In this document: one piece after another, positions 19,745-59,431 of the stretch | Position numbering within the stretch: position 1 is the first letter of the stretch | Layout: each line of letters begins with the position of its first letter | IMG/VR virus record: IMGVR_UViG_3300035158_000183 | Location: 64,001-128,000 of that record | DNA length: 64,000 nt | Source of the DNA: a virus | Strand: one strand, 5' to 3' | The notes under the pieces: generated by a model | Told to the model about the DNA's origin: nothing | Seen by the model: only the letters and a program-made list of their open reading frames with translations | Databases searched by the model: none | Program-made: the position numbers and the translations under genes

Positions 19745-19745
19745 T

Positions 19746-23282
<3,537 letters not shown>

Positions 23283-29868: not shown

Positions 29869-29880
29869 AATGACTCCTCA

Positions 29881-34749: not shown

Positions 34750-34758
34750 AACTTATCC

Positions 34759-36009
34759 CTAAAAAGTAATGAACTGTATTCCGCGATACCGCCCTGAGGT
34801 TTCGAGGATTATCCTCTCGTTGTAAAGCGGCGAAAGCCATTCCCCAAATGTCAGTGTACGCACGCTGCCCTCACCGGTAGGAGAGGCCTTGTGCAGATAA
34901 ATCTCCTCGAACTTGTTGGGCCTATTGCGCCCAATCCTATATGCCAGAGGAGCTGCCTCCAGCATAGAATCTATTATGTTAACCATCTCGATATCTTCAC
35001 CGATGTCCAGGGCATTAATGACTTCTTCTACTGCCTCCCGCATCGCAACATAACCGAAGGCAATCTCCTCAGCCTTAGCACGAGGTGACCAGTTTACGGC
35101 TGCCACTAGCTCTAACCCTAGAGGTCTGGGAGCAGATATGAATGGCCGTATGCCATAGCCTGTTACTAGATTGACAGATTGTGTGACTTCACGTATCAGG
35201 TCAGGACTTACTGTCGGCGTGATACCCTTGATATATAACGCGAATGTACCTGGCCCTTGCTCGGCGTTTACCAGATAGACATCAGCCACACCTGGTATGG
35301 CTAGTGCTGCGAGCCTAATCGAAGCCATAACTGCCATTGTCCGAGAGCGGAACACATTAGATAGGCGGTATCGATATGATTCATCCTCTTCACGATCTAC
35401 ACCATTATCAATTGCGTATCTGTTTGTACACTTCAGCCGCTGAGTGTCCGAGAGCGTATAGGAATTAAAGCCATGTACATTCAATACGTTACGAGGCACA
35501 GAAGAATCTATACCCTCAAGGGCGGACCTGACAGGTGCATAAACAAAGCTGGTGTCGGCTTCGCCTGTAACCGGCACGAGGGTCGAATAGCTGACAACAG
35601 GCTGCTCGGCAATTCCTGGAGTAACAATCTCGCCAGAAAATGATTCCGTGGAGACGCTTGTGCCAGCTGGTATAGAGATGGCTGCGCCATTATTGATATC
35701 GCCAAATGTTCCCGAATCTACGTAGAACATCAAGTTGTCATCTTCAGCTATGGCGTGGGCAGCTTCCAGCCTAGGGACGTTCAACATATCGCCAAAGAAG
35801 TCTAGGAAGCGTCCCTCTGCGTAGTGGATGTAGGGCTGTAGTAGATTCTCGTCAAACAGTCTCTGCTGTTTCGCCTGCTCCCGAGCTGTGGTAGACAAGA
35901 AGAAGCGTGCCTTGCCGCCAGGTGCCATTTGATTAATGTTGGTGTCGCGGTCTAGGCGTTCCAGCGATTCGTTGATAATTTCTCTCTCTTCTCTAGGGAA
36001 AAATGGCAT
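34759..36009 (-). CDS. Baseplate J-like wedge protein
   Basis: AEGRFLDFFGDMLNVPRLEA, IPAGTSV, TNRYAIDNGVDREEDESYRYRL and ALAIPGVADV are classic baseplate-J motifs. Confidence 0.9.
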   Translation of the reverse strand: MPFFPREEREIINESLERLDRDTNINQMAPGGKARFFLSTTAREQAKQQRLFDENLLQPYIHYAEGRFLDFFGDMLNVPRLEAAHAIAEDDNLMFYVDSGTFGDINNGAAISIPAGTSVSTESFSGEIVTPGIAEQPVVSYSTLVPVTGEADTSFVYAPVRSALEGIDSSVPRNVLNVHGFNSYTLSDTQRLKCTNRYAIDNGVDREEDESYRYRLSNVFRSRTMAVMASIRLAALAIPGVADVYLVNAEQGPGTFALYIKGITPTVSPDLIREVTQSVNLVTGYGIRPFISAPRPLGLELVAAVNWSPRAKAEEIAFGYVAMREAVEEVINALDIGEDIEMVNIIDSMLEAAPLAYRIGRNRPNKFEEIYLHKASPTGEGSVRTLTFGEWLSPLYNERIILETSGRYRGIQFITF

Positions 36010-36013
36010 TATC

Positions 36014-36454
36014 CTACGCTCCTATGAAATATACGTTATTGTCCGAATAGTTATACAGGAAATGTCTAATAAGTACTTCGGAACTAGCATTTCTGGCTGT
36101 TGGGGCAACGCTTATTGAGGCCCGTACTAGTAATTTATCACGAGCCACAGGCATATACTGTAACTTTATGTCCTGTGTATGCACAAAGCCGTTCCGAGCA
36201 AAAGCAGCCGTAATACGAGTCTTGATTAGCTCTGCTGTCTGTTCATCATTAGGTTCTCCCACAAAATCTCTGAGATTGGCTCCGACATCCTCAAACACCC
36301 TCCAGTCACCCTGGTCGGCCTCTACCCGAGTCTTCATCTCCTGTAACAATGACCTGAGAGGATCGTGCTGGGTGTCCATGAGATCACCCTCGCTGATAAA
36401 ATAGTCTCCCCGGGATGTCCAGAGCATGTCTATCTTATCGTATATACGAGGCAT
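36014..36454 (-). CDS. gp25-like baseplate wedge / sheath initiator
   Basis: GDLMDT...LLQEMKTRVEADQGDWRVFEDVGANLRDFVGEPN matches the gp25/GPW family pattern. Confidence 0.8.
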   Translation of the reverse strand: MPRIYDKIDMLWTSRGDYFISEGDLMDTQHDPLRSLLQEMKTRVEADQGDWRVFEDVGANLRDFVGEPNDEQTAELIKTRITAAFARNGFVHTQDIKLQYMPVARDKLLVRASISVAPTARNASSEVLIRHFLYNYSDNNVYFIGA

Positions 36455-37257: not shown

Positions 37258-40200
37258 TTATAATTCGGCCTCTTCGAGCCCTCCTGTATCTCCCAAGAAG
37301 CCCCAGAAACTCTCTGATATATCCAGAGCAGCACCGAATAGCTCCTCGCCAATATCCAACTTATCCCAAGCTGTCTCGAGATCATCCCAGTACTGGTACC
37401 ACCTACCGTGTAGGCCCACAAATAATGAGGACCTGCCTGCTCCACAGGCCACACTAACAAATGGCTTACCACCAAGGGTCAGTGGGTTGGTTATTACCGG
37501 CACGGCGTCCTGAGTCCAGTTAATGATCTTCACTGCTGCAGTCATAGCCATAAGTGGCAGGGGGCTTGTGAGTGCTGTAAGGCTAACACCTGACTGTGGC
37601 TGGTCGAATCCGTAAGCATATGATAGTGCCTCGCAAGCTGTATCTATGGCCGCCTGGGCATAGAAGTCATTCACCACCACACACATGTCCGGTGTGATAA
37701 TGGATATAAAACCAAAGTCTCGGTTAAAAACTTGCTCTACGGCTTCCACCTCTATAGGGCCAATCATGTTAATGCTAGAATCATTAATGAGACATACATC
37801 ATATGGCTTAAGCTTCTCGTTGCCTGTTACAATCAACTCGCCCTGATATGCATCACGCAGATGACGCGCGAACAGGCCTTGTACATATCTCTTGGCCATG
37901 TCTACTGTTATACAGCTTGGGAACTCTTCCCTATACGACCGCAAATACTCGTCTGGAATATTCTCGTCCAGTTTGCAAGCAAGCACTCCGCTATCACTTC
38001 TCTGCAGTGCCTGCAGATTGTCAACGAGATCCTCAGCATCCTCTTCTTCCAGAAGATTATCATTGTCGAAATACAGAACCTCTACTTCATTCGGTACCCC
38101 ATTCCGGTTAGTGCGGATAGTGTTCTTCAGAATATGGTGAACCGAGTCAAAGTAATGGTAATTACGGAATGGCTTATATCGGCCGAACAGAGCACTGACT
38201 TGGGTTTCAACACTGTGTGCCGGTGCTGAGCTGGTAAGGGCGATGGCTATTGCATTAGCCATCTTAGGATTGGCGGCTGCTAGCTTACGCATACTGCTGC
38301 GAAACTCTTCATTTGGTATCAGCTTGGAGACCTCCAATCCTTTGAGGTGTCGTATGCCCCTAGTGGCGCTATCTGCCAAAAGCATTTCCATATCACTTGG
38401 CGGTCTTGACCAGTAGTGCTGGCCCTTGGCTCCGAAGAACATGGTCATACGCGGAGAGTGGCCATATGGTATAGCCAGCGCTGCATATCCAGGATGTCGC
38501 AGCTCATGCTCGCGGAATATTTCCCATGGTGTTTGCTTGATGGGCCTATATGCGCAAGCATTATCCCAATATTTCATCCAAGTAGTGGCATACACCTTAG
38601 GAGGGGGCGCGAAGATGTTATCATCCTGGGGCTCATTACGATGTGGATTCTTAAATAACTGGGATAGCGTTTCTCTGCGTCCCCATTCAGTGATAAGGCT
38701 TGCGGGGTTAAGTTGATATAGTATACTCTGGCCATGGCCACCCCTAAGCTTGTGGCGTATCTCGCTTGTTAGGAATCGGTTATAGTCGCTGCGGCGCCCA
38801 AAGTGTACGATACTGGGATGTAGAATAGCTCCCGACAACACTTCCTGAGACGAGTAAAACACTTTGCCATCGCTCAGTGGGCCCAGCTCCACACCCTCAA
38901 GCTCGGCACCATATCCCTGACACACGATCTCCAGGATCTTTCCATCTTCCGACGGAGCTATTTCTACAATACTACCCAAGAACACTGACTCTAGCAGATC
39001 TGGATTGGCTGCATATCCCAACCGAATCTGCACTTTAACTCCATCCTGAAGAATCATATTTTCAAATGGATTCTCCAGTTCAGTATCGGCGAATATTCCA
39101 GTGGCTCTTTCAGCATTAATACCATACTTCGCCTCGTGATCCTTGATGTATTGTGCCTTCTCACCCCAGCGTCGCCTCAGCAAAGTGTCCCCGATATTAG
39201 TGATGCGAATGATGGCAAGATCAGCCGCCACCTTACGAGAACGTATTATACGTATCTCCTGTACACAGGAGTATGAATAGAAGTCATCGAAGGCCCGAAC
39301 GACTCGACCGTTAACCTTAATATCCTCGTCAGCATCATCTTCGATGAAGTATATCTTGAAGGTAGGGAAAGCCCGCCTCATACTGAGATCATTCTTCTTA
39401 TTGCCTAGAGCTATACTAGTACCCAGTGCTGCTGTATTCTTAACCTTGCTGCCTTCACCGAACTTGCCCTTGGCCACATCATGGTCCAGCCCCTTCAGGA
39501 TTTCAGTTATGCCTCCAGCTCGTATCAGGTTAGCACGATTCTCCGCCTTCTGGTCAACTAATTTCTGTACGTCACCGATAGCTTCTACCGCCATTGCCAG
39601 TGGATTGATCCCTAGTTTACCAGCAAGACGTGTAACCCCACCAAGAAGTGCGAAATATTGGTCTTTCACCACACCCCAGGCACTTGGCTGTGCATCTGCA
39701 GCAGCCTGTACCTCTTCTTTATTGTTCCCAACAGTGTACGACCCATCAGATAATCGGGTAGCTCTAGGGCCCAGGTCTCCCCACTCCACGAAACCACCAG
39801 CCCTCTTAATCTCTTCCTTAGACTTCTGGGTCTGTTGACTATCTGGTGTACCTGACAACTTCTTGTCAGCTGTCTTATAATCTGGATTTGGCCCAAAGGA
39901 CAGAGCCCTCCAGTTCACGTCGTACATAGCCTCAATTAATTTCTCAGGCTCTGGCATTACGTCACTACTGTGCCATTCAAGTGGGCGGCCTGACTGAACA
40001 TATTCACTCATATGTGTCAGATTTTGCATAAAGTTGAACTGCGCTGTGGTGTAGTCAGTAGCTTTAAGCCCCGTACTGACAGTTTTGAACCATGCTGCAG
40101 GCCCTTTGGCCTGGTAGTCCGGGTCATCTGGACGGTAATATACGGGCTCCCATGCATTAGTACCTTCCTGCATCATCTGTTCGTAGTCTAAAAAGGTTAT

Positions 40201-43200
40201 CTCACCGGCTGCACGATCTACTCCAGCAAATTTCTCCAGATATATCTTCCTGCTCTCGAGTATGCGAGGTAAGTTGTATGACAGATACGAGCCACCCAGC
40301 ATGGTGTCATGAAGATATCGCTGGATAGATGCAACCTCATTGCGGACGTGACGGCGTAAGAAGGTTTCCATGTTATTCACATCGGTTAGAGCGGATACCA
40401 CTGAATCTTCTTTGGAGTCATCATATATATAGAACTCAGGCGGAAGCGGTATGGCAGGCAAGCGTTGCTGTGAGTCTGTGCCTTCAGAAACAAGGGGCAC
40501 CTCCGGCAGGTTCATATCTGCGTAACATTCACCCACCGCTAACGCTGTGGCTTCTAGCCTCTGCTGTCTGATACCTGGAAAGTAATTATCGAACCTCTCA
40601 TCTAAAACATGTGACTGTACCTGTCTGATTACGCGCTCCATACTGTTCAGCCACTTGTTAAACACTCTTGCATGCTCACGGTTGGTGGCCCAGGCACCAT
40701 TGGTACTAAACTTCCCATTATACATATCGTTCCATGTACCTACACGGTCATGTTTGACCCTAGTATAGTGAGAGCGTGGTGAGTCTAGTTCAGCCATCAT
40801 TTCCGCTTGAGCAGCAGGGCCCTTCTTGACTATTGCAGTACTAGGCTTGTCCTCATTAGGAATATTCTTAACTTGTCCAAATAATACCCCTTCTGCTCCC
40901 CAGGTGCGATATGCTGTCTCCCAAGTCTCGTTGCTATCAGGAGCAGTTTTCCAGACAACTGGCGGCATCTCATTCTGTGTTTTCTGACATATATCTGCGG
41001 CCTGAATCACTGCTTCTGCCAGCCAACCAGGGAAATATGGATCCTTTACTTTCCATGGCCTGCCATGACCTGCCACCCAGTACCCTTGTTCCTGCTTGAC
41101 CTGATTCTCATGCGCTACCTCGTAGAGCCGTGGCTCGATGATGCTAGGTTTAGGTATTATATTGCGGCGATCATCATCCTGTGGATCGTTAGATAGCTTC
41201 TTGGGCTTCTCAGACTTCAAGAACTTCATAATGCCAGAAACAATTTGTCGCTTAGCACTTATATCTGTAGGTATGTATCTATCAAGACGTTCTTCAGCGA
41301 AATCCTGGGTGATGAAGCTAACATTCATTTGGTGTTGGTCCACCGAACCTTCCACGCTTGATTCCTGTACATCTGTGACAACGATATCTCGTATGCTCAG
41401 AAGGGCCAAAATATTATTGGTCTCATCTGTGACAGGATGGCTTGACTCTACTCGCATAGAGCCAGCGTAGGGTATCATAGCATTGAACCTGCGAGCATTT
41501 TCCCTCGCGCGAAATATCATCTTCTTAAGGGCGTCAGCTCCCTCCCTGCCTTCTACACCTGTAAATGTGAACGACAAAGTACCGGTCTTATTGCCGGCTC
41601 CCAGGAACTGCCAGGTATATGTATCCTGACTCAATAACTTTATCGGTACTATCCTATGACCGAAAGTCACGGAGAGTCCGGAGAGTACCATGTTCTTGGC
41701 AAACACAGAATCTCGGTAATCATCTGGATTGCTAGATACGTATAGCTGTACATCCTTGGCAAATATATTCCGTAACTTAGGATCCTCGGAATAGTAATAC
41801 CAACCCTTGGCATTATAAGAAGCAATCCATTTGTTTCGTGCCTGCTGACTGCGCACATCCTTAGGTAATTCAGTGGGCTTGCCCGGGATAGCCTCAGACT
41901 TGGCCGCAGTACCCTCAGTGGGTTGGGGCCTAGGCTTCTTCTGCTCTTGTTGCTTGGTCTGCTCGGGCTTCTTCTCATTAGGGCCCTTGGAGACATCCAT
42001 ATGCTGTGTACGCTTGGCAAGCTTAGGTCTCACACCTATAGGCAGAGCCTGGAATATTTCGATTCCACTTTTCGTATTAGATGCTAAACGTGTTTTAGGC
42101 GGTCCGGCACGTTTGGACTTCTGGTCAACTGCCTGACAGTATATGGATATAATAGTCTTGTCAGCAGCATAGCCTATATGATGTACTCTAGTCAGCAACA
42201 TAACGTGCTTAGACCACACAATGCCAACAGGAATTCCGGCATCAATTACTTTCTGTATATTCTTAGCTGACTGGCCTGTCAGACGCAGCAGCCACCTCGC
42301 ATTATGCTGTGCAGCTCTAACAGTCTGCCTGCACCCGAAGTAGCCGAAACCCTTACCCTTCGCTCGTGCCTGAATTGGAACCTGATACCCAGCACGATGC
42401 AGGGTCTCGTAGAACATGATATTGCATTTCTCTTTATGCTCATAATGAACGGTCTCGCCAGTCTCTTTATCTGCCAAGTGTGGGCTTAGCTGTTTCCCTA
42501 ACTCAAGCTTACCTCTCTTCCTCCAGGGTTCCCTGTCCCACTTCCATAGTTCTTCTCTGGCCGATTGCCACGAGCGCTTACTGCGCTTTAAGAATACTGG
42601 CACCTCTTGTCCTGGTACAGATGCCTGCTTGGCAGCCTGCTGGGTGGCAGTCGTTATTTGCCCCTGGGAGTCAGTCTCGACCAATGGTGCATTGGTGGCG
42701 TTGTATATTGCTGCCGCTGAAGGGAATCCGTCCTGTTCCTTCAACACATCGGCTACCACACCTCGGCCAAGTTTTTGGGTCTTGTCTGGAGGATTGTGAT
42801 GCTCCAGCATCTGTAGAGTGAAACCTACAATATCGCTATTAGTTGTACCGACACCTGGAGTATTCTTCTGCATATGGTCTGCATAATACATCCATGCATC
42901 AGAAGCTCCAGGGAAATTTACTGGTACATTAGGTTCCTCGCCACGTAATGGCAGAAGACCTTCGCGAATATCATTGACCATCTTCTCAGCTTCATAATCC
43001 AAAGAGTGGGCCGATGCTTCATAGGAGGTCAGGTCCCCCAGTAGCAACTCACGTTCTGGAGTAGGTCGGCGTTTCGAGACATTTGGAAACGTAGTATTGT
43101 ACCAGAAATGATTACTAAATGGTTTGAAGTTAAAGTGATGTAGTGTCAGCGTCAGTATCAGCTGGCCAGGAGTAGCTGAATTAGATAAGGTGCCGGTCTC

Positions 43201-43728
43201 AAGAACAAATATCGTATTTATAGCTGGGCTAGAAACACCAAGTGATTTACGCACCTTACCGTTAAACACATATACTAGTGGATTGTGAGTAAGCTCAGCT
43301 ATCAAACGATGAAGCTTTACTGATTGCGCAGGACCCTCTGGGAAAACTAGTGTTATAGTAAGCACCATGTCTTGTAGGCCTTTGGTGGCCACTACCGGGG
43401 ACTCTGATCTAAGCGTTTCGGCTACGAATACATCATTGTGGGACTCGATCTGGATGGCATTCATTGGCACATCAGACAGCGTGATATCATTGAGCATCAG
43501 GAAGTCGTCAGCAAATTCACGGTATCCTAGCTCGGAGAGAAACTCCTGTTCCTGGAGAGCAGCCGTAGGTCTGATAGTCCTTGCCCGTGCTTCCTGGAAC
43601 TCTAACTCCAGCAGCTCTTTAGGCACAGGGATTGACTGACCTAGAGGGTCCGGTAGCTCCATCTCATCAGAGATTGGGTCTCCATGTTCATCTAGTACAG
43701 GTAACTCATCTGAGGTTTTTCTAGGCAT
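37258..43728 (-). CDS. Giant baseplate hub (gp27-like) protein with an internal papain-like cell-wall hydrolase domain
   Basis: 2156 aa. C-terminal GVKVQIRLGY...VFLGSIVEI...IVCQGYGAEL and YQGELIVTGNEKLKPYD...IEVEAVEQVF are hub motifs. Internal KCNIMFYETLHRAGYQVP (Cys435) and WSKHVMLL (His508). Confidence 0.75.
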   Translation of the reverse strand: MPRKTSDELPVLDEHGDPISDEMELPDPLGQSIPVPKELLELEFQEARARTIRPTAALQEQEFLSELGYREFADDFLMLNDITLSDVPMNAIQIESHNDVFVAETLRSESPVVATKGLQDMVLTITLVFPEGPAQSVKLHRLIAELTHNPLVYVFNGKVRKSLGVSSPAINTIFVLETGTLSNSATPGQLILTLTLHHFNFKPFSNHFWYNTTFPNVSKRRPTPERELLLGDLTSYEASAHSLDYEAEKMVNDIREGLLPLRGEEPNVPVNFPGASDAWMYYADHMQKNTPGVGTTNSDIVGFTLQMLEHHNPPDKTQKLGRGVVADVLKEQDGFPSAAAIYNATNAPLVETDSQGQITTATQQAAKQASVPGQEVPVFLKRSKRSWQSAREELWKWDREPWRKRGKLELGKQLSPHLADKETGETVHYEHKEKCNIMFYETLHRAGYQVPIQARAKGKGFGYFGCRQTVRAAQHNARWLLRLTGQSAKNIQKVIDAGIPVGIVWSKHVMLLTRVHHIGYAADKTIISIYCQAVDQKSKRAGPPKTRLASNTKSGIEIFQALPIGVRPKLAKRTQHMDVSKGPNEKKPEQTKQQEQKKPRPQPTEGTAAKSEAIPGKPTELPKDVRSQQARNKWIASYNAKGWYYYSEDPKLRNIFAKDVQLYVSSNPDDYRDSVFAKNMVLSGLSVTFGHRIVPIKLLSQDTYTWQFLGAGNKTGTLSFTFTGVEGREGADALKKMIFRARENARRFNAMIPYAGSMRVESSHPVTDETNNILALLSIRDIVVTDVQESSVEGSVDQHQMNVSFITQDFAEERLDRYIPTDISAKRQIVSGIMKFLKSEKPKKLSNDPQDDDRRNIIPKPSIIEPRLYEVAHENQVKQEQGYWVAGHGRPWKVKDPYFPGWLAEAVIQAADICQKTQNEMPPVVWKTAPDSNETWETAYRTWGAEGVLFGQVKNIPNEDKPSTAIVKKGPAAQAEMMAELDSPRSHYTRVKHDRVGTWNDMYNGKFSTNGAWATNREHARVFNKWLNSMERVIRQVQSHVLDERFDNYFPGIRQQRLEATALAVGECYADMNLPEVPLVSEGTDSQQRLPAIPLPPEFYIYDDSKEDSVVSALTDVNNMETFLRRHVRNEVASIQRYLHDTMLGGSYLSYNLPRILESRKIYLEKFAGVDRAAGEITFLDYEQMMQEGTNAWEPVYYRPDDPDYQAKGPAAWFKTVSTGLKATDYTTAQFNFMQNLTHMSEYVQSGRPLEWHSSDVMPEPEKLIEAMYDVNWRALSFGPNPDYKTADKKLSGTPDSQQTQKSKEEIKRAGGFVEWGDLGPRATRLSDGSYTVGNNKEEVQAAADAQPSAWGVVKDQYFALLGGVTRLAGKLGINPLAMAVEAIGDVQKLVDQKAENRANLIRAGGITEILKGLDHDVAKGKFGEGSKVKNTAALGTSIALGNKKNDLSMRRAFPTFKIYFIEDDADEDIKVNGRVVRAFDDFYSYSCVQEIRIIRSRKVAADLAIIRITNIGDTLLRRRWGEKAQYIKDHEAKYGINAERATGIFADTELENPFENMILQDGVKVQIRLGYAANPDLLESVFLGSIVEIAPSEDGKILEIVCQGYGAELEGVELGPLSDGKVFYSSQEVLSGAILHPSIVHFGRRSDYNRFLTSEIRHKLRGGHGQSILYQLNPASLITEWGRRETLSQLFKNPHRNEPQDDNIFAPPPKVYATTWMKYWDNACAYRPIKQTPWEIFREHELRHPGYAALAIPYGHSPRMTMFFGAKGQHYWSRPPSDMEMLLADSATRGIRHLKGLEVSKLIPNEEFRSSMRKLAAANPKMANAIAIALTSSAPAHSVETQVSALFGRYKPFRNYHYFDSVHHILKNTIRTNRNGVPNEVEVLYFDNDNLLEEEDAEDLVDNLQALQRSDSGVLACKLDENIPDEYLRSYREEFPSCITVDMAKRYVQGLFARHLRDAYQGELIVTGNEKLKPYDVCLINDSSINMIGPIEVEAVEQVFNRDFGFISIITPDMCVVVNDFYAQAAIDTACEALSYAYGFDQPQSGVSLTALTSPLPLMAMTAAVKIINWTQDAVPVITNPLTLGGKPFVSVACGAGRSSLFVGLHGRWYQYWDDLETAWDKLDIGEELFGAALDISESFWGFLGDTGGLEEAEL

Positions 43729-43734
43729 TTCTTG

Positions 43735-46700
43735 CTACAACCTCTCATGGATTCTATTAGCCAGACGTTGCGGACTCAAGGCCTCTCGGTTGTCTACTGT
43801 TCTAATCCGGGTCCGACCGCCTAAGTCTCCAGCTTGTCTCATGAAATTCTGGCCCATCTGGTTCGCATCAGGTGTAGGTATTCTAATACTAGCACGAGAT
43901 GCGGATCTCATTCCACTCATGTCGTACACCTTAGGCGACTGCATTATCCTTGCTGTTGGAGGACTCATACCCTGTCCGGCTGCAGGACCAATATAGTCGT
44001 CCCCCAGGTTCCTGCCACCAGCTGCTCCCTCTTTCGGTGCCGACAGCGAACCAGATACTGATGGGGCTGCTAGCATTACGCCGGCCGCCAGACTAGCCCC
44101 TATCATCAGTGGGGCTCTGGCATGGCGCAAAGCCCCGAAGACAGCTGAAGTTCTAGTCTTAGCCATACGCAAGGCCCTGGTGGCATTTTCGGTGAGGCTC
44201 GGCTGCCCGTAAGCTTGTCGCTGCATGACTGCTTGTGCCACATCGAGGGAACCCGTACGACGCTTGTAATACATGTGTATTAAGGTATTTAAGTCATCTG
44301 GCACGCGGCCTTTGGCCAACTGTGCTTCCTTGACAGCAACGTCTACATCTGCACCAACTGCACGTACACCACTTATGATGTCTTCCGCAGCCTGTCTGGG
44401 GCTGAATTTCAGTGTTCTAGCACCCTCCCGACCGGTCACAGGATTAGTGATGCTACCAGATACTACACGATCTTCTTCGCCCATTATTCTCTTCAGCACA
44501 CTCTCCATCCCACTTGCATCTTGTTGCTGTATAGCATGGGCAATATCTTGATACATCTGACTCTGGTAGGCTCCGTGCTTACCACCAATAGCGGCTTCTT
44601 CTAGGTGCCAGAACAATTCAGCCATTGGACGATACTTCTCTGGAGCTGCGTACTGTAGGCCCAGTTTGGCTTTCTGTAAAGCTATATTAACCTGCGGGGT
44701 GGCTATTTTGGCTGTTGTGAGGTTCGCAGCTCCCTGCATCATAGCCTCACGTCTTGTCATTTCAGCGATACCCTTAACCCCTCCAAGCTTTGCTGCCTGG
44801 CTCTTGATCAGATCTTTCATAGCATAATGATTGAATAAATAGCTGGTATATCCTTCAGCAATTTCACTATCCATCTTGCGGGTTAGTCTGTTAAAGGTGT
44901 CTCTGTCTGATATAGCAGCTATAGAAAACGCATCTTTATCAAAATCACCTTTCATACCTACCATGGGAGATATATCTACTTGGCGTTGTACGCCACCAAT
45001 AGTCAATGACCCCTCTTGGTATGGTGAGGCTATTAGCTCGTCTGCTAGATTCCGGTCTACCTGAAACCGCGCGAATTGGAAACTCTCTGGTCCGGTGAGA
45101 GGGTGGCGCCAGACACCCGCAACCACAGCCTGATTCTTCTTTAGCAACATTTCTTTCTGGAACTTCAATAGCTCTCGCTGGTCATCCGTCTTGGCATTCT
45201 CCAGCAACTCATCCATCATTCTCTGGGCGGTGCGTGGGGAGACACGGAAAGCTCCAGCAGCTTGGGCTGTCTGTTCCGCAGTTTGTCGGACACCTGTCAG
45301 ATACCTGGTTCCCAACAGCTTGCCTTTAGCAATGGTTGCCTGGCGCTCTGTGGCAGCTACAACCTTGCTCCGTAATGAGGCAGCTGCGGCCTCAATTTCT
45401 TCTGTAGCCGCCCCTCTAGCTAGCTGATAGCGTAAATTTTGTAGTTCCTGCATAACATCCGTATCAATCATACGGCCGCCCTGAGCACGGAACTGCTGCA
45501 TAAGCTCTGGGGCTTCCTCAAAACCTGGCACATATAGCCGCTTGGCGCCCCCTAAAGCTTCTATATCCTGGCCTAACGGGACATACCTTCCTTGTGCTCT
45601 CCGCAAGTCTTCTTGGGTCATCTGTGCCAGTGTTTTCTCAGCAGTAGGTATATCCCCAGTCCATCGTTCGACAAGGCCTTCTTCACCCAGCACAGTGCCC
45701 ATCATACGATTAGCTGCTACTAAGTCAGTTTTGCCATAGGCTCGAGTACCCAGCTCTGCTGCCAATGCTTGGCCCTCCGCACCCTTCATGGCTAACAAGC
45801 GCATGCCAGCTTGCTCAATTGTAGCCATGCCACCTGCACCACCTTCAGCTGCTAGATCACCCAGACGACCCTTCATAAGCCCCATCACACCAGTGGAGTC
45901 TGCCACTGCCTGACCAATGCCGAGGCTATCTGCTACACCCTGATCCATCAGACCGAAAGTGAGGCCCATCTCTTCAGCAGTAAACCCAAAACGCTTGGCT
46001 GTTCTTGTCATACGCCGCTGCAGATCGAATACAGCACGGTCAGCAGTTGCTGCGTTCAGGCTACTGACTCCCATGATACGAGCTGGATCCTCTAAAAAGC
46101 TTCGGGCCACAGCCTCGCTTCCAGCCAGTGTGCCGGCATCTATCTTGCCAGCGGTTATGAGAGACATAGCCTCCATCTGCTGAGTCAGCTGGGCCATTAG
46201 GTTACGTTGGACCAGCTTGCCAGACCACATAGCCTGCACGGCCTGTCCGCCTATCTCTGTAGGTGCGCCGGCTACCCCGAGCATGCCAGCTAATTCTTTC
46301 TGCGTTTGAGCCCTACCCATGAACTTAATATCTTCACTGAAAAATTTCCACCACTTATCTCGACCTATGCGGTGCCGTTCGCGTACGTACACCGTAGCGG
46401 CATGATCGTCCGTAAGTTCGGCTGCAATAACTTCAGCAGCTTCCCCGCCTGCTTGAGCCTCTGCCCATAGCGGTGCGCCAGTGTGGCGCTCAACTCCTAT
46501 AAACCCTTCTTGTCCTATAGGAGTAGCGAATTCTCGCACTTCTCCGATGCGAGCACCCTTAAGCTTAGCCAGTATCTCTTCATTCACCCTGAGGCCTTCT
46601 CGTAGGTTTATCTTCTTTGCTACAACACGCTCATACTCCATCATATCGGCTGCTTGCTCTGCGATAAGTCCCTCTTCCAGGAACATTCTCTTGTTCAGTT

Positions 46701-48228
46701 CCTCAGCGAGAAAGTTTCCTTCGACCATTCCTCTCTGTAGGGCCTGCTTCTCGTTAGCAGTCTTGGCATAGAACGTTACTAGCTGAGGAGCAGTATAAGC
46801 CTCGGCTGCCGTAGCCGCATGTCCACCGTGTACCATTCTCTGATAGGCTGGGCCCTGAATCTTGCGTTCTAACCGGCTATAGTATTCGCCAAAAGTACCA
46901 GCGAATGGTGTGGCCTTAGCCTTAGCTTCCGCCGTGACACCCCACTCTCCCCTAATAAACTGGAAAGGTTGTTGTTCAGTACCCACTAAACGGCCTAGTG
47001 GGCCATATAGCTCTTCGGCAGGTGTCATACGCTCGTGCACGCCTGCCATAAATACACCTCTGGCTACGGGATCCGGACCGCCAACAGGCCACAACTGCCG
47101 TCCGCCTGCTGCAGCTTCCTCCACCATCTTTCCGCGTAATTCTTCAGTCATTTTGCCTGCATACACTGCTTGCTGGCCCAACATCCGTGCTCTAGCCCTG
47201 CCTCCAGAAGGCAGCACTGCTTCAGGCAAGGACCAAACTGCCATTGCTCTGTGTGATGCGTCCCGGTCATGAAGAGCTTCTATGATTCGATGATTTATCT
47301 CAATTACTGTGTTCTTAACACCTGTAGTGGTCTTCTGTCTGGATATGGCGTTGGCCAGAAGATCTACGTACTCATCAGCATAGTTGCGTATAGCTCCTGT
47401 CTCACCATAGGCACGCCGGGTTCTATATCTGGCTGTGAGTCGCTGTCCGCCATAGGCCATCCCTGCACCCTCTAGCGGAATATTTATAGCTTCTCTTCCG
47501 ATAGCCGCTCTTAGTACAGGAACTTCAGCAAACTTACCGCCACCTAGTGCTTCCCGGACCATCTCCACACCACGCCAGTCTATCTCCCCGCCAGCTTTGC
47601 GCATAGCTTCATCCAGCCTCTCCTGTATGGCCACGGCTTTGGGAAAGTCTTGAATAGGTTTTACTGGTCTGTCAATGGTCGTGCCCACAAACTCGCCCGG
47701 TGATATGGCTGCCTCCGCTCTGGCCGCCCATGGAGTGCGTCCGCCTAGAGTGGGATCTGCTGTTAGAGACCGCAGGCGCCCAGCAAAGACATCAGCATCA
47801 CCCAGCAAATCCTGAATCTCAGCAGCAGCTTGCCCATAAGCCTTCTTGTATGTAGACTGGCCCATGATATTTTGGAAAGCTGTGTAAGCTTCCTCTTCAC
47901 TATAACGGCCACCTGCCATAATAGCTTCATAGGCGGCAGCGGCTATATCATGCTGCAGCACCTTGCCGCCTGGGCCAATCTTGGATAGCTCGTGAATAGC
48001 CAGATCTGATGTGTCCACCGTGCTCTTGATGGTGCGTTGCAGGTTGAACCCACCCATACCAGGTACTCTTGCCGCTACTTCGCCAGCAATATCTCTGGGC
48101 ATTGTAGTGAAAAGACCCCTGAGAGCGGGATGGGCCCGGTACAAACCTACGCCAGCACCTCCCAGCAGAGCTGCACCTGCAGTAAACCCCCAGAGTGGTG
48201 AACGTTCTTGATAATTGTTATCTGGCAT
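43735..48228 (-). CDS. Putative single-chain two-barrel (beta+beta' DPBB) RNA polymerase, likely virion-associated
   Basis: 1497 aa. Beta-like motifs in order: FLEEGLI, VYVRERHRIGRDKWWKFFSEDIK, GQAVQAMWSGKLVQRNLMAQ, GGMATIEQAGMRLLAMKGA. Then beta'-like motifs: GKLLGTRY, VSPRTAQRM, WRHP, SPMVGMKGDFDKD (44932-44949). Hydrophobic segments at both ends. Confidence 0.72.
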   Translation of the reverse strand: MPDNNYQERSPLWGFTAGAALLGGAGVGLYRAHPALRGLFTTMPRDIAGEVAARVPGMGGFNLQRTIKSTVDTSDLAIHELSKIGPGGKVLQHDIAAAAYEAIMAGGRYSEEEAYTAFQNIMGQSTYKKAYGQAAAEIQDLLGDADVFAGRLRSLTADPTLGGRTPWAARAEAAISPGEFVGTTIDRPVKPIQDFPKAVAIQERLDEAMRKAGGEIDWRGVEMVREALGGGKFAEVPVLRAAIGREAINIPLEGAGMAYGGQRLTARYRTRRAYGETGAIRNYADEYVDLLANAISRQKTTTGVKNTVIEINHRIIEALHDRDASHRAMAVWSLPEAVLPSGGRARARMLGQQAVYAGKMTEELRGKMVEEAAAGGRQLWPVGGPDPVARGVFMAGVHERMTPAEELYGPLGRLVGTEQQPFQFIRGEWGVTAEAKAKATPFAGTFGEYYSRLERKIQGPAYQRMVHGGHAATAAEAYTAPQLVTFYAKTANEKQALQRGMVEGNFLAEELNKRMFLEEGLIAEQAADMMEYERVVAKKINLREGLRVNEEILAKLKGARIGEVREFATPIGQEGFIGVERHTGAPLWAEAQAGGEAAEVIAAELTDDHAATVYVRERHRIGRDKWWKFFSEDIKFMGRAQTQKELAGMLGVAGAPTEIGGQAVQAMWSGKLVQRNLMAQLTQQMEAMSLITAGKIDAGTLAGSEAVARSFLEDPARIMGVSSLNAATADRAVFDLQRRMTRTAKRFGFTAEEMGLTFGLMDQGVADSLGIGQAVADSTGVMGLMKGRLGDLAAEGGAGGMATIEQAGMRLLAMKGAEGQALAAELGTRAYGKTDLVAANRMMGTVLGEEGLVERWTGDIPTAEKTLAQMTQEDLRRAQGRYVPLGQDIEALGGAKRLYVPGFEEAPELMQQFRAQGGRMIDTDVMQELQNLRYQLARGAATEEIEAAAASLRSKVVAATERQATIAKGKLLGTRYLTGVRQTAEQTAQAAGAFRVSPRTAQRMMDELLENAKTDDQRELLKFQKEMLLKKNQAVVAGVWRHPLTGPESFQFARFQVDRNLADELIASPYQEGSLTIGGVQRQVDISPMVGMKGDFDKDAFSIAAISDRDTFNRLTRKMDSEIAEGYTSYLFNHYAMKDLIKSQAAKLGGVKGIAEMTRREAMMQGAANLTTAKIATPQVNIALQKAKLGLQYAAPEKYRPMAELFWHLEEAAIGGKHGAYQSQMYQDIAHAIQQQDASGMESVLKRIMGEEDRVVSGSITNPVTGREGARTLKFSPRQAAEDIISGVRAVGADVDVAVKEAQLAKGRVPDDLNTLIHMYYKRRTGSLDVAQAVMQRQAYGQPSLTENATRALRMAKTRTSAVFGALRHARAPLMIGASLAAGVMLAAPSVSGSLSAPKEGAAGGRNLGDDYIGPAAGQGMSPPTARIMQSPKVYDMSGMRSASRASIRIPTPDANQMGQNFMRQAGDLGGRTRIRTVDNREALSPQRLANRIHERL

Positions 48229-51200
48229 TACCTAACTCCCATCCTCTTGTGGGTTTCTCGCACTAATTCATCTCTAGAGTCAACGATTTCAATATCATAC
48301 TCATCCGGTCCTTTAGTAGCCAGACCACACCGCATCACCCTGCTGCCACTACCTCCATGGACCTTGGCTAGTGTTTCAGCATTCAGCTTGTGTATCATAA
48401 CATCTTCTAGCTCAGCACGGGCTTGCATATCTCGTATAAGGTCTTCATTAATATACGGTTTTCTAGCTAGGGCTCGCTTCCGAGCACCCCAAAGATCGAA
48501 CTCATGATGGTCGAGTCCGGCCATCTGCACATACTGAAGCTTAACATCCTCCATATCAACTGATGGACTATTATGATAGATTCCAATTGGAGAACAATAC
48601 ATGTGCTGGTCTTCAACTTCAAAATCGAGCACCGTGCCTTCGTATTGGGATCTTTCAATGGTCTCTACTCGATAAGCTATAAAGTTTTCACCTACTATAG
48701 CTGAAAGAGAAGAGCTAAGTGACTCTACTGCATATTGGGCTTTACCATTTCTCTTCTTTGGCCCATGCAAACTAGCAGGAATACCTTGTGCCTCATATAG
48801 CCGTTTGGCCATATAGCATAATTGTCTATTAGCAAGAATAAGTCTCCCCCGCTCATCTTTAGAAGCATCCCCTGTATTAAGGCCATCTAATAAAGCTGCT
48901 TGGCTCTTCTGAGTAATATTCTCTAACCAAGAAGGAGAATATTTTTGATCACAATATCTACCTACCCAATGATTAATAAGCCAACCGAAAATACTATTTG
49001 CTACTACTAAATATGCGCTTTCACTCTTAGGCTTCTTCTTAAATCTGATGATGCTATCTAATCCAAATTTATCTTTAATGATTTTTTGAGCTAATTCTAG
49101 AATTGGGACTTCATCTATATGCGCTGTAAACTGTACTCCTCTCATTCTGTCTCCAACAGCCCATGTGTTCCCTCCTGCTAAGTAATAGCCAATTAACCAA
49201 CAAGTAGCTTCATCTAATTTGATAAATCTATTGATTGGTTTAATTCTTCCTGTCTTCGGACGTAAAGTATCATCAAGTATCAGAGTATTGTTTGGAAAAC
49301 AATTAAGCTTACCAATATCTATTACTGGATCTTCATCAGTATGTTTTAGTAAAGGAATAGGCAAGTACGTATTTGTTGTAAGTTTACCTATAGGCATCCA
49401 TTTAGCAGAATAAGATTCATAATGCTTTGTAGTACAGAAATTACATTTCCACATTGTTGTTGCATGCGTGCATACAGATTCAGGCTTTAAATTGTATTTG
49501 CATCGTTCAGTCTGAATCCCAAGCACAATATGATTCTCTGTTGCTGCCATACAATAAACACTGTTGTGATGAGTTTTAACAATTATAATATCTTCATTTG
49601 TCTGTCTCTCAAAAACTTGTTTCACTTGGTTTTCTCCTTGCAAGGTAGTTAAAGACTGATCTAATTTTACGTCACTTGCATGGAGAATTCTACCATCTGA
49701 TGTTAAGATATCTTGTTTCGGAGGAACACACCACCCTAGCCAGTCTGCGCCTGGCAAGGAGTGGGTTTTGAAGTATTCCTTAGCCTTAAGTTCGCGTATC
49801 CATTCATCAAATGGGATCTTTCCATCTGTCTCGGCTCGCCACTGCTCTTCCATCTCCGGTGTGGCCCCGAAGCCTTCGGTCTTGCGCATAAGAGCAGTCG
49901 TAATTAGTGTCTGCTCATCTTCCTTGGTGGCTATACCCGCCTGCTCCTTAGCTCTAGCAGCTCCTGCTTCCTGTTGTAACCACTTGGACATATACAGCCG
50001 TTGTTCATTCTCAGGTATCAGGGACAGTATCTCCTCGCGCTCTTCTGGTGATCTGGCACCTGTGAAAGCAGCAAAGAAGTCACGCTCTCTGCGCGGCAAG
50101 GCCCTCATAGCAGCCACTGGTGACCCGAAGACGTCCAGCCCGAACATGGTCCGCTGCTGGAGTTCCTGTTCCTCCCTCACATCTGACCACCTATTATTGT
50201 GGCGCGCAATACGTTCTGCACGCTCTGCCTTCACCCAATCCAGCATATCGAAATATTCATTAATGTCACGACGTTGGCGAATTTGTTCAGGAATTCTGTT
50301 GAAACCTATAGCGTGTAGTGCCATGTCGGCTGCTGGCTGTAGAAAGTTCTCCACAGGACGATTCCAAAATGCTGCCTGGGTGCCAATAGCCTCTGAAGCT
50401 ATGTACTCCTCAATGGCTGATCGTTGTCTGATAAGCTTGGATGCCGGAGACATAGGCGTTAGATACTCCATAGGGGTCTCAATACCATGCAAGATAGTCT
50501 CGCTCATGCGTCCAGCCAAACGCTCAGCAGGAGTAAATCTTAGCTGCTCGAATTCATCGCGTAGCTCCTTGGCCTCGGCATACTTCTGCTCCGCCAGGAC
50601 TTGCCCGTAGTCCTGGTCGCCCATCATGGCTACAGCCTTCATGCGGCTGCCGCGCTTGGTCACATCATAGCGGCGGGACTCCATCTGAGGAGCCTTGATA
50701 GTAATCTTCTGCCCCTCAAAGTGCTCAGTGGCGAAGTCCATTGCCTTCTGCATGTTGGTGATGGCGCCCACGCCCTGCAGCTCGATAACCATGTCGCCGA
50801 ATTCTGCTGCCTTGATACGACGTGGATCTAAGACCTCTGTGACGGTGATATCCCTGGTGCCTAGTAGCTCTGGTCTGAAGCGATACTCAGTTATCTTGCG
50901 GCGCTGCTTCCTGGACTTGACCTGTTCCTCAACAGTTCTGACTAGCTGCTTATCTTGATCCGATAGCCTACCAAAGTTTCGCTTAGCCTTCTGTAGCGTC
51001 CACTTATATTCGTCTGACCACATAGCCACATCGCCCAGGATTTTAAGGCGGTGGACGAGTGGATACTCCTCTGGGTGGACCCCAGCTACCTCAGGATGCA
51101 GAGCCTCGTACCCAGGACCCGGCAGTCTGATTTCAGCTTCCTTGATCTTCTGGAATGGATTGCCATACTTCAGATCTAAGAAGTAGTCTTCGGGCATCCA

Positions 51201-54200
51201 GGACGGCATGGTATTCTTTAGAGGGTTATAGGTCTCAAGATAGCTTCTGGTGCGCGGAATAAAACGTCTCACTGGCTCCGAGTTGTGCAGAAGTAAATAA
51301 TCCCCAACAAAACAATGAGACTCTTCAACTTCTATATCAAAAACTTTAACTCCCGTGGCAGGCTCGGCTTTTACATTTCTAACTGAGTAATATAAAAACC
51401 CATCCTGAGTAAACTGCCTACCATTAGAGTGTTCGAAACTTTCTTCCCAATCATTGTCGAGAATAATGCGGCAATATCTATCATGTTGGTCTTTGCTAAA
51501 CTTAAGATAGGATCTAAGAGTTGGCTTGCGTTGTTCGCCCTGCGGATATTGATTGTTAGGTTTGGGAATTTCCAAGTAGTCATCTGTCACTGTGGCAAAT
51601 ACACCAAGTCTTGCCAGGACAATCCAAAGATCTCGCACTAGCCGATTAGACTTACTAGTAAACCCTCCTGAGTATTTCTCTTTATTACTCCACCCATCGC
51701 CACCAATTAAACCAGCAATTAGCTTAGGCAATAAAGAGATGGGCAGATCAATAAGCCACGCCAATTTCTTAGTGCCGGCATCGGTGCCGAATTGCTTAAG
51801 CCATCGTGCTAAAGGAATATTGTGTAGCCTTAAAGCACAACTTCCTTGTTCGGGTTTCGTAGATATGTTATAGCTAAATCCAAATCTGGCTGTGTATATT
51901 TCGCCCAAAATATGAGCTATATCCAGCTCTTCTAAAGCAAGAGTAAAAGTAATATCTCCAGCCTGTGGGTCAGCACTACCCTCAGCAATCCACCACCCCA
52001 CAAACCAAGCAAGATCACGACCGAATACAACCTTACGTGGAGTTCTTTTGGGAGAGTGCTTTTTCCGGTATGAATTTAATGCTTCCTTCGCATATTGATC
52101 GGGAACGATTTCTCTTAAATCTTTCCGAGACATAAGGGGATTATTCTCTAGTGCTTCTATAGCTTTGGCAAAATGTTTAGTGGCCCTAGAATAGATATAG
52201 TCGTCTGTCACCGTTGCTGTAGAAGCAGCGTAGGGACCAAAATCTATAGATATATCTTCGGAAGTAATACCACCGGGCAGCGGCATTACCACAAAATCAT
52301 TTGGCTCAATAGCATCAGCTCGAACCCATTGCCACGCAATCTCTGTGTCACACAATCCACAAACACTGCAATGTTTCTTAGGGCTATGTGGGGTGCATGG
52401 TCTGGCATGACTATCTCTACAGGGAATACGTTTATAAACAGCAACAGGGTGATTCCCCGTAACTCTTACCGTCTTATTACCAACCCTGGTATTGATAGTA
52501 ATCATCTGTTCGTCGGAGCCGCAGATCCTTTCAAAAACATTAAGTACTTGCTTTGTCTTCATACGGTGATCATAAACAGCATCACCTACTTGAATATCCT
52601 CGATGTTCTTCAGGCCATCCGGAGTAAAAACCTTCTCTCCGGCAGGTAAGCATGCACCTAGCGCACCACCCACATTGAGATGGCTCCATAGCCAGTACTC
52701 AGATCCGGTCTCCTTGCCCATGACGCCTAATGTTTGTAGGTTCTGGAAGAACTCCTCCCTACCCGTCATGGCATGCTCAATAGCTCCCTCAGCAAAACCG
52801 ACAAGACCTACAGCCTCACGTCTGCGGTACATAAGCTCGTTGAACAACTGGCTACCTTCTTCGGGTACTACCGGCGCTCCAGGACGCAAGCCCCCAAGCT
52901 CATACGCTGGCTCGGTTTCCTTGCGGACATCCGGTCGATGTACATACTCTCCCTCATCTAGCATCCATTCCTCAGGACGTATTAGCTTGCGAGGCTTGAG
53001 AGCTTTGCCCACTGTTGCCGCAACAAGAGGACCGAAAAATGGTACATCTTTACCGTAAGTGCCTGCAAGCGGGGCCGGCCGCTCATACTGATATTTTCTT
53101 TCGTAGTGGTACTTCCACTCGTCTGACCCGAACAGGGCCTTTAATGGATGGAGCCATGGGTCGTGTTCCCACTTCTCTTCTTCAGTACCATACATGCCCT
53201 TCTGGAATGCTCTGGTCCGCAACCTCTCCATGAAGTGAGGGCGGTAGTATTCTATGCGGCCACCCTCGTAAGGAGTAGAATTGTGCACCAAGAATGTACC
53301 CGCCTGGAATAGATGATCCGGGTGATCTACTTCGAAGTCATAGACAATATCATCATAATCTTCTGTTTCTATCGCGCAAATAACAGAGTAAAGTTTAGAA
53401 TTACAAACTTTATAGAAATATGGAATCCTACCTGGAGTCCACTTGATCCTATGCCTCCCCCTATAATCATTCTTCTCAAACTTACAAAGATAAGGATATT
53501 CTCCTAAGTTTAACAATATAGAGAATATTGCATCAAGAAGCCCTCGTCTACAAGAAGAGATAACACAGGTTCTTTGATCTAGATGTCCATCTCCACGCCG
53601 ATAACCCTCAACCAATTGTTCTTTAAAAGCTTTTGGTGCAGACATAAATACTTGTGGAAATATTTTGTCTTGTTGGCGCTCGCTATTATAAAACAGCTCA
53701 AAGAACATTCTGGCAAGCAAAGAACTGCAGATCCTTACGACCCAACAGCCTTCGTTTGTTTTCTTCTTGCCTTTCTTAAACCTTACTGTTGGTGTAATGC
53801 CAAATTCTTTCTCAGATATAGAGACAACATCATCAACTATCCATCGTTCTGATTTAGCGTGAACAGTTTCTATCATGTGGGGAATATCATTCTTATAAGA
53901 AATATTGCCTTCTGCTAAGAAGTAACCGAATAGACGGCCTAGTTCTGGTGTTAATGTTACAACTCTAGGGATTGAAGCCCCCCTAGATCTTTGAACCTTG
54001 CCACTATACCAATTCTTCTGTGCGGGGAGAAGAATATCTTCACAGATTAAGAAAAGACCAGTCTTTATCAAATCTTCAGAAATAAGCTCAGTTGATGTTT
54101 CCTTTAGCTGTGGGATAGGTATCTCTACTCTGTCGTTTACTCGAAGCCCTTTCGCTTCTACTTCAACAATTTCTTCTCCTCTAAGAACCGGAACCTTATG

Positions 54201-56060: not shown

Positions 56061-56773
56061 CTGCCTCGGCGATACATTTTGCGCTTAAATTCCAGCTCTT
56101 GCTGTCTGGCACGCTGGATAGCTTCTTCTCTAATCTTCTGCATACGTGCTCTACCCTCAGGATCTTCGTCGGCCGGCCTATCAAACTCTTGATATGCTTC
56201 GGTATCTTGCCTAAGCACATCTTCTACCAGATATGGCTTCTCCACCTCATCCTCAGGCTTCTGAAATGCATGTTCTTCTTCTATTATACCGCGATCTAAC
56301 AGGACTTTCTCGGCTTGGATGAAGTTATAGACTAGCTGTTGATAGTTGAGGCTGTCCAGAGATTCGAATGTATATCCAGCAAATACAATGCAGATTACAC
56401 GCTTCATGTAATCGGCAGTAACATTCAGCTGTTTCCGGTAGGTCTTGTATAGCTCTTCGGTATAATCTTGAGAATCAACATCTACACCTGACAAAAACAG
56501 TGCAAGCCTGGCAGTGGTCTCTGAGATGCCTGCCGGTAACTGATTGAAATTCTTCTCAGTTTGCCACTCATTCTCGACTATCTGCTCGAAGATACTATCA
56601 TATATAGCACTTTTCAGGCTAACCTTGGGGGCCATATCCAGAAGCAAGGCATATTGGCTGGCCTGCTTTATAGATGGCAGACGGAAGATAACCTCTACAC
56701 CCTCTACTTCGAAGGCATACAGGTCTTCGGATTTCTTCTGGATTGCCTCCAGGGCCCGCGTGAGACCATCCAT
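56057..56773 (-). CDS. Tail assembly chaperone-like protein 2
   Basis: 238 aa. VIFRLPS...LPAGISETTARLALFLSG is paralogous to the upstream gene. Lies between the tube genes and the tape-measure-position gene. Confidence 0.6.
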   Translation of the reverse strand: MDGLTRALEAIQKKSEDLYAFEVEGVEVIFRLPSIKQASQYALLLDMAPKVSLKSAIYDSIFEQIVENEWQTEKNFNQLPAGISETTARLALFLSGVDVDSQDYTEELYKTYRKQLNVTADYMKRVICIVFAGYTFESLDSLNYQQLVYNFIQAEKVLLDRGIIEEEHAFQKPEDEVEKPYLVEDVLRQDTEAYQEFDRPADEDPEGRARMQKIREEAIQRARQQELEFKRKMYRRGR

Positions 56774-56776
56774 CGG

Positions 56777-59355: not shown

Positions 59356-59380
59356 ATTTTAGACCTTCAGGAGATGGGAG

Positions 59381-59410
59381 AACCGGGTCAGGCTTAGTCC
59401 TGACCCGGTT
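59381..59410 (-). terminator. Perfect 12-bp hairpin downstream of the tube gene (terminator or RNA-stabilising stem)
   Basis: AACCGGGTCAGG-cttagt-CCTGACCCGGTT, 21 nt after the tube stop codon. Followed on the minus strand by CTCCCATCTCC, with no long U tract. Confidence 0.6.
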
Positions 59411-59431
59411 TATGGGCAGATTGAACACAGA

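Follow-up and report, generated by a model that had tools for sequence, protein, structure and literature searches.

We analyzed a 64,000-nt stretch of viral DNA (hereafter the window; positions 64,001 to 128,000 of the IMG/VR virus record IMGVR_UViG_3300035158_000183), in which a gene that we call P0001 encodes a large protein with the predicted features of a single-chain RNA polymerase (RNAP) of the two-barrel type. The window contains the structural module of a myovirus, encoded on the minus strand, and the source record is 174 kb long with an estimated completeness of 91%. A first-pass annotation, made from the sequence alone, had read this gene as a hidden single-polypeptide RNAP. The open reading frame (ORF) that it reported is indeed present as a frame of 1,497 amino acids (aa), and all the motifs that it quoted were found at the residues given: E518/E519, K625/K628/K635, WRHP with R1041, and DFDKD at 1095-1099. 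The ATG of P0001 overlaps the stop codon of the upstream gene (TAATG) and its own stop is separated from the next start by 6 nt; with this spacing, P0001 is one of the cistrons of a densely packed operon. The protein is composed of 14.7% Ala and 10.7% Gly and has no Cys, unlike the cellular beta' subunit, which has zinc-binding Cys clusters. On balance, our results favor the view that P0001 represents a new family of single-chain two-barrel RNAPs, residing within the tape-measure-slot protein of myoviruses related to phage 0305phi8-36 and Acinetobacter phage vB_AbaM_ME3 (ME3). The features of the gene are listed below, where DPBB stands for double-psi beta-barrel.

43735..48228, minus strand: whole gene P0001, a 1,497-aa single-chain two-barrel RNAP-like protein (ORF, translation, homologues)
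48133..48201, minus strand: N-terminal Gly/Ala-rich, weakly hydrophobic segment (aa 10-32; from sequence, with a comparable segment in distant homologues)
45841..46803, minus strand: beta-like module with DPBB-B (aa 476-796) and a helical insertion
46321..46350, minus strand: W-K-F-F-S-x-x-x-K motif with K628 and K635 (both Lys in 36/36 homologues)
44911..45312, minus strand: beta'-like DPBB-A (aa 973-1106; DPBB fold by structural alignment)
45073..45111, minus strand: W-R-H-P-x-x-G-P-E-S-x-Q-F motif (aa 1040-1052; R1041 in 36/36, P1043 and S1049 in 35/36)
44932..44946, minus strand: DFDKD (D1095, D1097, D1099), candidate Mg2+-binding triad (Asp in 36/36)
44587..44754, minus strand: two long helices after DPBB-A (aa 1159-1214; model helices 760-795 and 797-815), bridge-helix candidate
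44563..44604, minus strand: helix-loop-helix with E1210 and G-K-H-G (K1217, H1218), trigger-loop candidate from its conservation
44053..44121, minus strand: hydrophobic, membrane-span-like segment (aa 1370-1392; Kyte-Doolittle mean of 1.5-1.7 over 19 residues)
43738..43809, minus strand: conserved extreme C-terminal tail (I-R-x-x-D-x-R-x-x-L ... I-H-E-R-L)

The predicted structure of the core, which is flanked by an N-terminal region of ~470 aa and a C-terminal region of ~160 aa, resembles RNAP. We modeled aa 400-1340 with AlphaFold2 (mean predicted local distance difference test, pLDDT, of 75; predicted template modeling score, pTM, of 0.48) and the best 50 Foldseek matches of this model in PDB were all RNAP beta' chains, with E values from 5.6e-5 and a probability of ~1. 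A separate model of residues 476-835 (pLDDT 89.8) matched only second-largest subunits of the beta/Rpb2 type and minimal DPBBs. Residues 797-1338 matched only largest subunits (beta'/Rpb1), QDE-1/RDR2, P74-26 gp62 and P23-45 gp96. An independent all-against-all structural search also split the aa 400-1340 model into two halves. Model residues 1-396 were paired with second-largest subunits (chain C of the phiKZ non-virion RNAP, 9.2; residues 697-1042 of Pol I A135, 8.5; African swine fever virus RPB2, 7.4), and the C-terminal half, besides largest subunits, with QDE-1 and RDR2 (8.2), P74-26 gp62 (7.2), and P23-45 gp96 (6.3). Minimal DPBBs, such as designed DPBBs and the N-domains of CDC48/VAT, superposed on model residues 574-707 with root-mean-square deviations of 2.0-2.8. 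The ESM-Atlas and BFVD neighbors are likewise RNAP families. Neither PolD chains nor gp66 of the crAss-like phage phi14:2 appeared among the structural matches listed, of which the all-against-all search gave 50; this has no bearing on whether these folds differ.

Based on the matches of the two halves, both barrels are present in the predicted structure, each resembling its proper subunit, in the beta-then-beta' order that the first-pass annotation had proposed, with the beta-like module at aa ~476-796 and the beta'-like module at aa ~970-1340. The mutual placement of the two barrels is limited by the pTM of 0.48 of the large model. Considering the models together, we regard a two-barrel RNAP fold as highly likely for P0001. 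Across both halves, the subunits of multisubunit DNA-dependent RNAPs could be aligned over 217-347 residues vs 89-223 residues for QDE-1, and the family thus resembles multisubunit beta/beta' more than QDE-1 in the extent of the predicted structural alignment.

The conservation of individual residues was assessed across homologues, all of them metagenomic: a word-indexed search yielded 45 clusters and an exhaustive HMMER search 61 representatives. Full-length homologues span ~1,430-1,610 aa, and the contigs that encode them reach 198 kb. No relatives of the core were found among proteins of 2,621-5,000 aa, which is weak evidence against fused forms. In an alignment of 36 members, with identity down to ~23%, residues K628, K635, Q683, R1041, D1095, D1097, D1099, and E1210 are invariant, and P1043, S1049, K1217 (35/36 each), and H1218 (33/36) are nearly so. 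The residues that had been named beforehand as necessarily conserved are, in this alignment, almost the only conserved positions. This holds for the three Asp, R1041, K628, and K635; E518/E519 and K625, which had also been proposed, are conserved in close relatives only. Each distant homologue carries exactly one DxDxD, at the equivalent place, and position 1098 within it is variable (K, R, N, G, A, D, L, or Q); two members have the canonical form, DFDGD in homologue P0063 and DYDGD in homologue P0088. The DxDxD string alone is not significant and was found in 10 of the 62 ORFs of at least 250 aa in the genome; it is the conservation and the fold, and not the string, that raise the observation above chance.

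These conserved residues fall on candidate elements of a two-barrel active site. A DPBB of the beta' type was recovered at aa 973-1106 with the invariant Asp triad, and a second DPBB, of the beta type, was recovered by model matching together with two conserved basic residues. In the confident domain model, the W-K-F-F-S-x-x-x-K motif forms two short strands (gp36 of phage ME3 reads KFFSVGSK at the aligned position). K628 and K635 are the candidate basic pair of DPBB-B and may be the structural equivalents of K1065 and K1073 of E. coli. The W-R-H-P-x-x-G-P-E-S-x-Q-F motif resembles by eye the beta' strand N-R-A-P-T-L-H-R-x-x-x-Q-A-F. Structural alignments to Rpb1/beta' run through the bridge-helix candidate and reach ~aa 1338; N1181, Q1185, and K1188 within this candidate are invariant among the 27 closer members. 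The tip of the trigger-loop candidate (model residues 818-820) was modeled with low confidence. Taken together, P0001 is likely to be catalytically competent.

None of this is apparent from standard sequence comparison. P0001 yielded no match in Pfam (E<=1), PHROGs, or NCBIfam, none in PDB by phmmer or profile search, and none by tblastn against 50,697 phage records, where the distant homologue P0092 was used as a second query. The first-pass annotation had aligned P0001 with E. coli RpoB and RpoC by eye; profile-sequence comparison did not reproduce this (hhalign probability of 0.1-0.2), and the residue-by-residue equivalences to the E. coli enzyme therefore lack confirmation at the sequence level. 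The family profile also gave no meaningful alignment with 0305phi8-36 gp99, with full-length 0305phi8-36 gp146, or with gp034 of Bacillus phage vB_BauM_KLEB27-3 (KLEB27-3).

The family does have a cultured member. Phage ME3 encodes in the same slot gp36 (AND75197, 'hypothetical protein'), which matched the family hidden Markov model with an E value of 1.3e-7 (for a nominal database of 1e6 sequences) and whose own BFVD model is a structural match with an E value of 7e-6. This protein presents the motifs KFFSxxxK and R-E-P...GGDHDQD. It differs from P0001 in being very divergent, in its length of 1,603 aa, and in coming from a cultured phage of 235 kb. No function was assigned to it in the literature that we searched (PMC5000817, PMC7824862).

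Related signatures were observed by sequence inspection in other phages. KLEB27-3 gp034 (locus L017 4055-11359; OM634661 35003-42307) is a 2,434-aa 'structural protein' in the tape-measure slot that carries N-R-Y-P-T...S-x-Q...A-D-Y-D-G-D, a textbook signature of the beta' barrel; this protein, too, is probably an RNAP embedded in the slot, though of a different subfamily. In Moorella phage MTATph1 (locus L016 4904-12260, CDS0027-CDS0031), the slot gene is seemingly split by a transposase gene: CDS0027 (1,309 aa) has no DxDxD and CDS0031 ends in the tail motif of the family. Microcystis phage Ma-LMM01 presents Q-R-T-P...G-D-A-D-G-D in ORF064 (locus L015 3811-8832; 1,673 aa) and G-D-F-D-G-D at residue 2537 of ORF080 (locus L015 17700-28388; 3,562 aa), and the BFVD structural neighbors include an LMM01 protein and a homologue from MaMV-DC. 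Cyanophages of the Ma-LMM01 type may thus encode unrecognized two-barrel RNAPs outside the tail module.

The position of P0001 in the structural module is equally informative. The genes surrounding it are the following.

60134-62050, minus strand: tail sheath (PHROG match)
57533-60112, minus strand: three tube-family paralogues (PHROG match to the 0305phi8-36 tube family)
56057-57517, minus strand: two small genes in the chaperonin position (synteny with 0305phi8-36 and ME3)
48228..56060, minus strand: upstream gene, a 2,610-aa virion protein of the gp145 type with three inteins (intein and LAGLIDADG Pfam matches)
37258..43728, minus strand: downstream gene, a 2,156-aa baseplate hub / cell-wall hydrolase (phrog_20474)

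Beyond the hub lie a baseplate wedge gene and then fibre genes. The sheath and the hub matched only 0305phi8-36, ME3, MTATph1, and three other Bacillus jumbo phages, and the gene order is identical in these phages. In tblastn searches, the matches of the hub were the hub proteins of ME3, 0305phi8-36, KLEB27-3, and MTATph1. The block formed by the gp145-like, RNAP-like, and hub genes is kept in distant homologues; one distant relative (locus L013 7984-8760) has a NUMOD3 homing-endonuclease gene between the first two.

The three inteins of the upstream gene (at ~aa 565-928, 1140-1590, and 2160-2498) contain LAGLIDADG domains. Once they are removed, ~1,390 aa of extein remain, which align collinearly with homologues free of inteins (1,285-1,414 aa), with ME3 gp35, and with 0305phi8-36 gp145. 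The first-pass annotation had placed P0001 between the gene in tape-measure position and the hub. Because of this collinearity, the placement needs correction: the upstream gene is of the gp145 type, and P0001 itself occupies, as judged from synteny, the slot of 0305phi8-36 orf146, which Hardies et al. assigned as the tape measure, 'one gene removed' from the chaperonins (PMC2147016). Both gp145 and gp146 of 0305phi8-36 are virion proteins by mass spectrometry (PMC2147016). The extein of the upstream gene showed no known domain, several hydrophobic stretches rich in Gly and Ala occur in its N-terminal third, and an ESM-Atlas feature search with this protein returned no usable match.

P0001 and gp146 also share a C-terminal module. 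This module is common to the P0001 family and 0305phi8-36 gp146, annotated 'hypothetical tape measure protein' (conditional E value of 9e-7), and consists of a hydrophobic segment, ~100 aa, and a tail of the N-I-x-D-D-R-S type. The hydrophobic segment, in which G1377 and P1389 are conserved, has comparable counterparts in three of the eight homologues scanned (P0016, P0045, and P0063) as well as in gp146 and ME3 gp36. In the extreme C-terminal tail, 27 members all retain D1479, R1481, L1489, A1490, I1493, E1495, and R1496, and the tail motif was also recognized by eye in KLEB27-3 gp034 and in MTATph1 CDS0031. At the other end of the protein, aa 10-32 fall under a strict Kyte-Doolittle threshold, and G24 within this segment is kept in 34 of the 36 homologues.

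We then considered the transcription machinery of the genome as a whole. Profile searches of the 174-kb genome with PF00940, PF00623, PF00562, PF05183, and Sigma70_r2 returned no match, i.e., no RNAP of the T7 type, no Rpb1/Rpb2, no RNA-dependent RNA polymerase (RdRP)/YonO-like enzyme, and no recognizable sigma factor. Among five related or compared phages, PF05183 matched only 0305phi8-36 gp99 (E value of 1e-20), a known YonO-like early RNAP (PMC2147016, PMC7824862). An either/or pattern was observed: 0305phi8-36 possesses gp99 and a slot protein without DxDxD, while ME3, KLEB27-3, and the phage analyzed here show the reverse. With very few genomes compared, this pattern may reflect functional replacement. 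Three upstream regions outside the window (genome positions 18060-19890, plus strand) present sigma70-like TTGACA/TAGACA boxes followed after ~17 nt by TAnnnT boxes, and part of the genome is therefore probably transcribed by the host RNAP. No phage-specific promoter word was detected by k-mer enrichment in the upstream regions of the 174-kb genome, where only Shine-Dalgarno-like and tRNA-derived words were enriched.

The genome also encodes Pol III alpha, a DnaG-DnaB primase-helicase, RecA, and a class II ribonucleotide reductase, several of them with inteins. Inteins and LAGLIDADG elements are unusually abundant in it: intein or homing-endonuclease domains occur in the class II ribonucleotide reductase, RecA, Pol III alpha, and a 1,085-aa late protein, at sites outside the window (genome G000 27715-32676, 34230-36323, 39309-43883, and 134881-138138). 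Within the window, the gene at 19746-23276 on the minus strand encodes a collagen-like tail fibre of 1,176 aa whose PHROG matches are very strong, and a local GC peak (0.57-0.63 vs ~0.50) with strong AT skew coincides with it.

Several explanations of these observations can be weighed. P0001 might be a genuine two-barrel RNAP that is made late and acts within the cell rather than in the virion, for instance in transcription late or very late in infection, in which case its place in the operon would be incidental. Single-chain RNAPs that are not virion proteins are known (P23-45 gp64, 0305phi8-36 gp99, and YonO; PMC10770324, PMC2147016, PMC5467207) and, as no other RNAP was found in the genome, one enzyme might serve all phage-specific transcription. 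However, an enzyme whose first synthesis depends on a late tail operon comes too late to begin the infection, every relative examined has the gene enclosed by two structural genes, and P0001 shares its slot, its C-terminal hydrophobic segment, and its tail motif with gp146, a proven virion protein. We therefore consider an exclusively intracellular role unlikely.

A purely structural role seems more doubtful still. P0001 could be a tape-measure or ejection protein in which a two-barrel core was exapted as a catalytically irrelevant scaffold: the slot is annotated as tape measure in 0305phi8-36, whose gp146 has no DxDxD, and the length of the family is very uniform (~1,450-1,600 aa). An ESM-Atlas feature search with the N-terminal 475 aa further produced weak language-model leads (0.76-0.80), which include tape-measure clusters. 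Yet it is the catalytic residues (three Asp, an Arg, and two Lys) that persist without change down to 23% identity, for which there is no structural reason. No tape-measure domain of Pfam was found in P0001, and its models are mostly globular alpha/beta rather than one long helix. Finally, an enzyme of another specificity (RNA-dependent like QDE-1/RDR2, a primase-like initiator, or a PolD-like DNA polymerase) is the least probable of these alternatives, given the longer alignments with DNA-dependent RNAP subunits, the absence of PolD chains among the matches listed, the Pol III alpha and DnaG-type primase-helicase already present in the genome, and the lack of an evident role for an RNA-dependent RNA polymerase in a double-stranded DNA phage.

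We thus favor a slot-embedded RNAP and consider it probable that phages of this lineage bring along a transcription enzyme of their own, which may be injected. The gene context makes delivery of P0001 with the virion fairly probable. P0001 would be produced late, together with the tail, become part of the tail or virion, and leave it by ejection upon contraction. Anchored at the membrane via its hydrophobic segment or segments, it would act on those genes of the 174-kb genome that enter first, transcribing them and perhaps helping to pull in this long DNA. The same mechanism has been proposed for P23-45 gp96 (PMC10770324). More tentatively, the 0305phi8-36/ME3-like lineage (170-235 kb) might have built an active RNAP into its slot protein, one that travels in the tail, is anchored in the membrane, and starts transcription during entry, and that evolved apart from that of P23-45. 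In relatives such as 0305phi8-36, loss of the slot enzyme would have been offset by a distinct early RNAP (gp99). Because the family shows closer likeness to cellular beta/beta' than to YonO/QDE-1, the enzyme might have arisen from a multisubunit RNAP by fusion and reduction to a minimal form without cysteine.

Single-chain relatives of cellular RNAP are rare (YonO, crAss gp66, P23-45 gp96 and gp64), and each is informative on the minimal transcription machinery and on the origins of RNAP. The present family is invisible to sequence searches of Pfam, PHROGs, NCBIfam, and PDB. If our reading is correct, it would add a second case to the RNAPs associated with the tape-measure slot and, within the literature searched, provide the first from a contractile-tailed phage, and it would explain how infection starts in large phages without a recognizable polymerase or sigma factor. 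It also raises the question of how an enzyme core of ~900 residues passes through, or sits in, the tail tube. ME3 gp36 comes from a cultured, tractable phage, which makes the claim directly testable, and a compact (core of ~100 kDa), cysteine-free two-barrel RNAP would be useful for structural and mechanistic study. The literature searched, which did not extend to the published list of 23 two-barrel families, yielded no account of the P0001 family and none that identifies ME3 gp36 as an RNAP; the text of the supplement to PMC10770324 does not mention ME3, Microcystis phages, or 0305phi8-36.

P0001 can be compared with four groups of known phage enzymes. The virion and non-virion RNAPs of jumbo phages such as phiKZ and AR9 consist of four or five polypeptides, are detectable with Pfam, and are packaged in the head (PMC7598289), whereas P0001 carries both barrels on one chain and has no Pfam match. 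YonO of SPbeta and 0305phi8-36 gp99 (PF05183, RdRP-like) are, like P0001, single-chain two-barrel phage enzymes (PMC5467207, PMC2147016, PMC7824862), and gp99 comes from a phage that shares its structural lineage with the phage analyzed here. Neither P0001 (E<=1) nor the rest of the genome matched PF05183, so that by this profile P0001 does not group with the RdRP/YonO clade. The phi14:2 gp66 of crAss-like phages and P0001 are both large RNAPs on a single chain that carry DFDxD and escape standard annotation (bioRxiv 10.1101/2020.03.07.982082), and both genes lie beside those of other giant proteins that are ejected or probably so. The crAss-like phages are, however, podovirus-like and gp66 is packaged in the head, while the P0001 gene belongs to a myovirus tail operon; membership in the gp66 family finds no support in the PHROG search or in the tblastn search of the 50,697 phage records.

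The nearest precedent is P23-45 gp96, the tape-measure-fused virion RNAP of a Thermus siphophage (PMC10770324; PDB 8H2M/8H2N). That protein is 5,002 aa long, with an N-terminal RNAP followed by a tape measure of ~3,800 aa that includes a metallopeptidase. P0001 shares no sequence similarity with gp96; it has 1,497 aa, its RNAP is central, it has no peptidase domain, and it belongs to a phage with a contractile tail. In structural comparison, P0001 is matched better by cellular-type RNAP subunits than by gp96, and profile searches of the 174-kb genome revealed no second RNAP like gp64 of P23-45. P0001 does not present the gp96-type architecture of a long tape-measure body with a peptidase, but one hydrophobic segment is present toward its C terminus. 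Since P0001 lies in the gp146 slot itself, it is nearer to the tape-measure-fused RNAP of P23-45 than the first-pass annotation had assumed.

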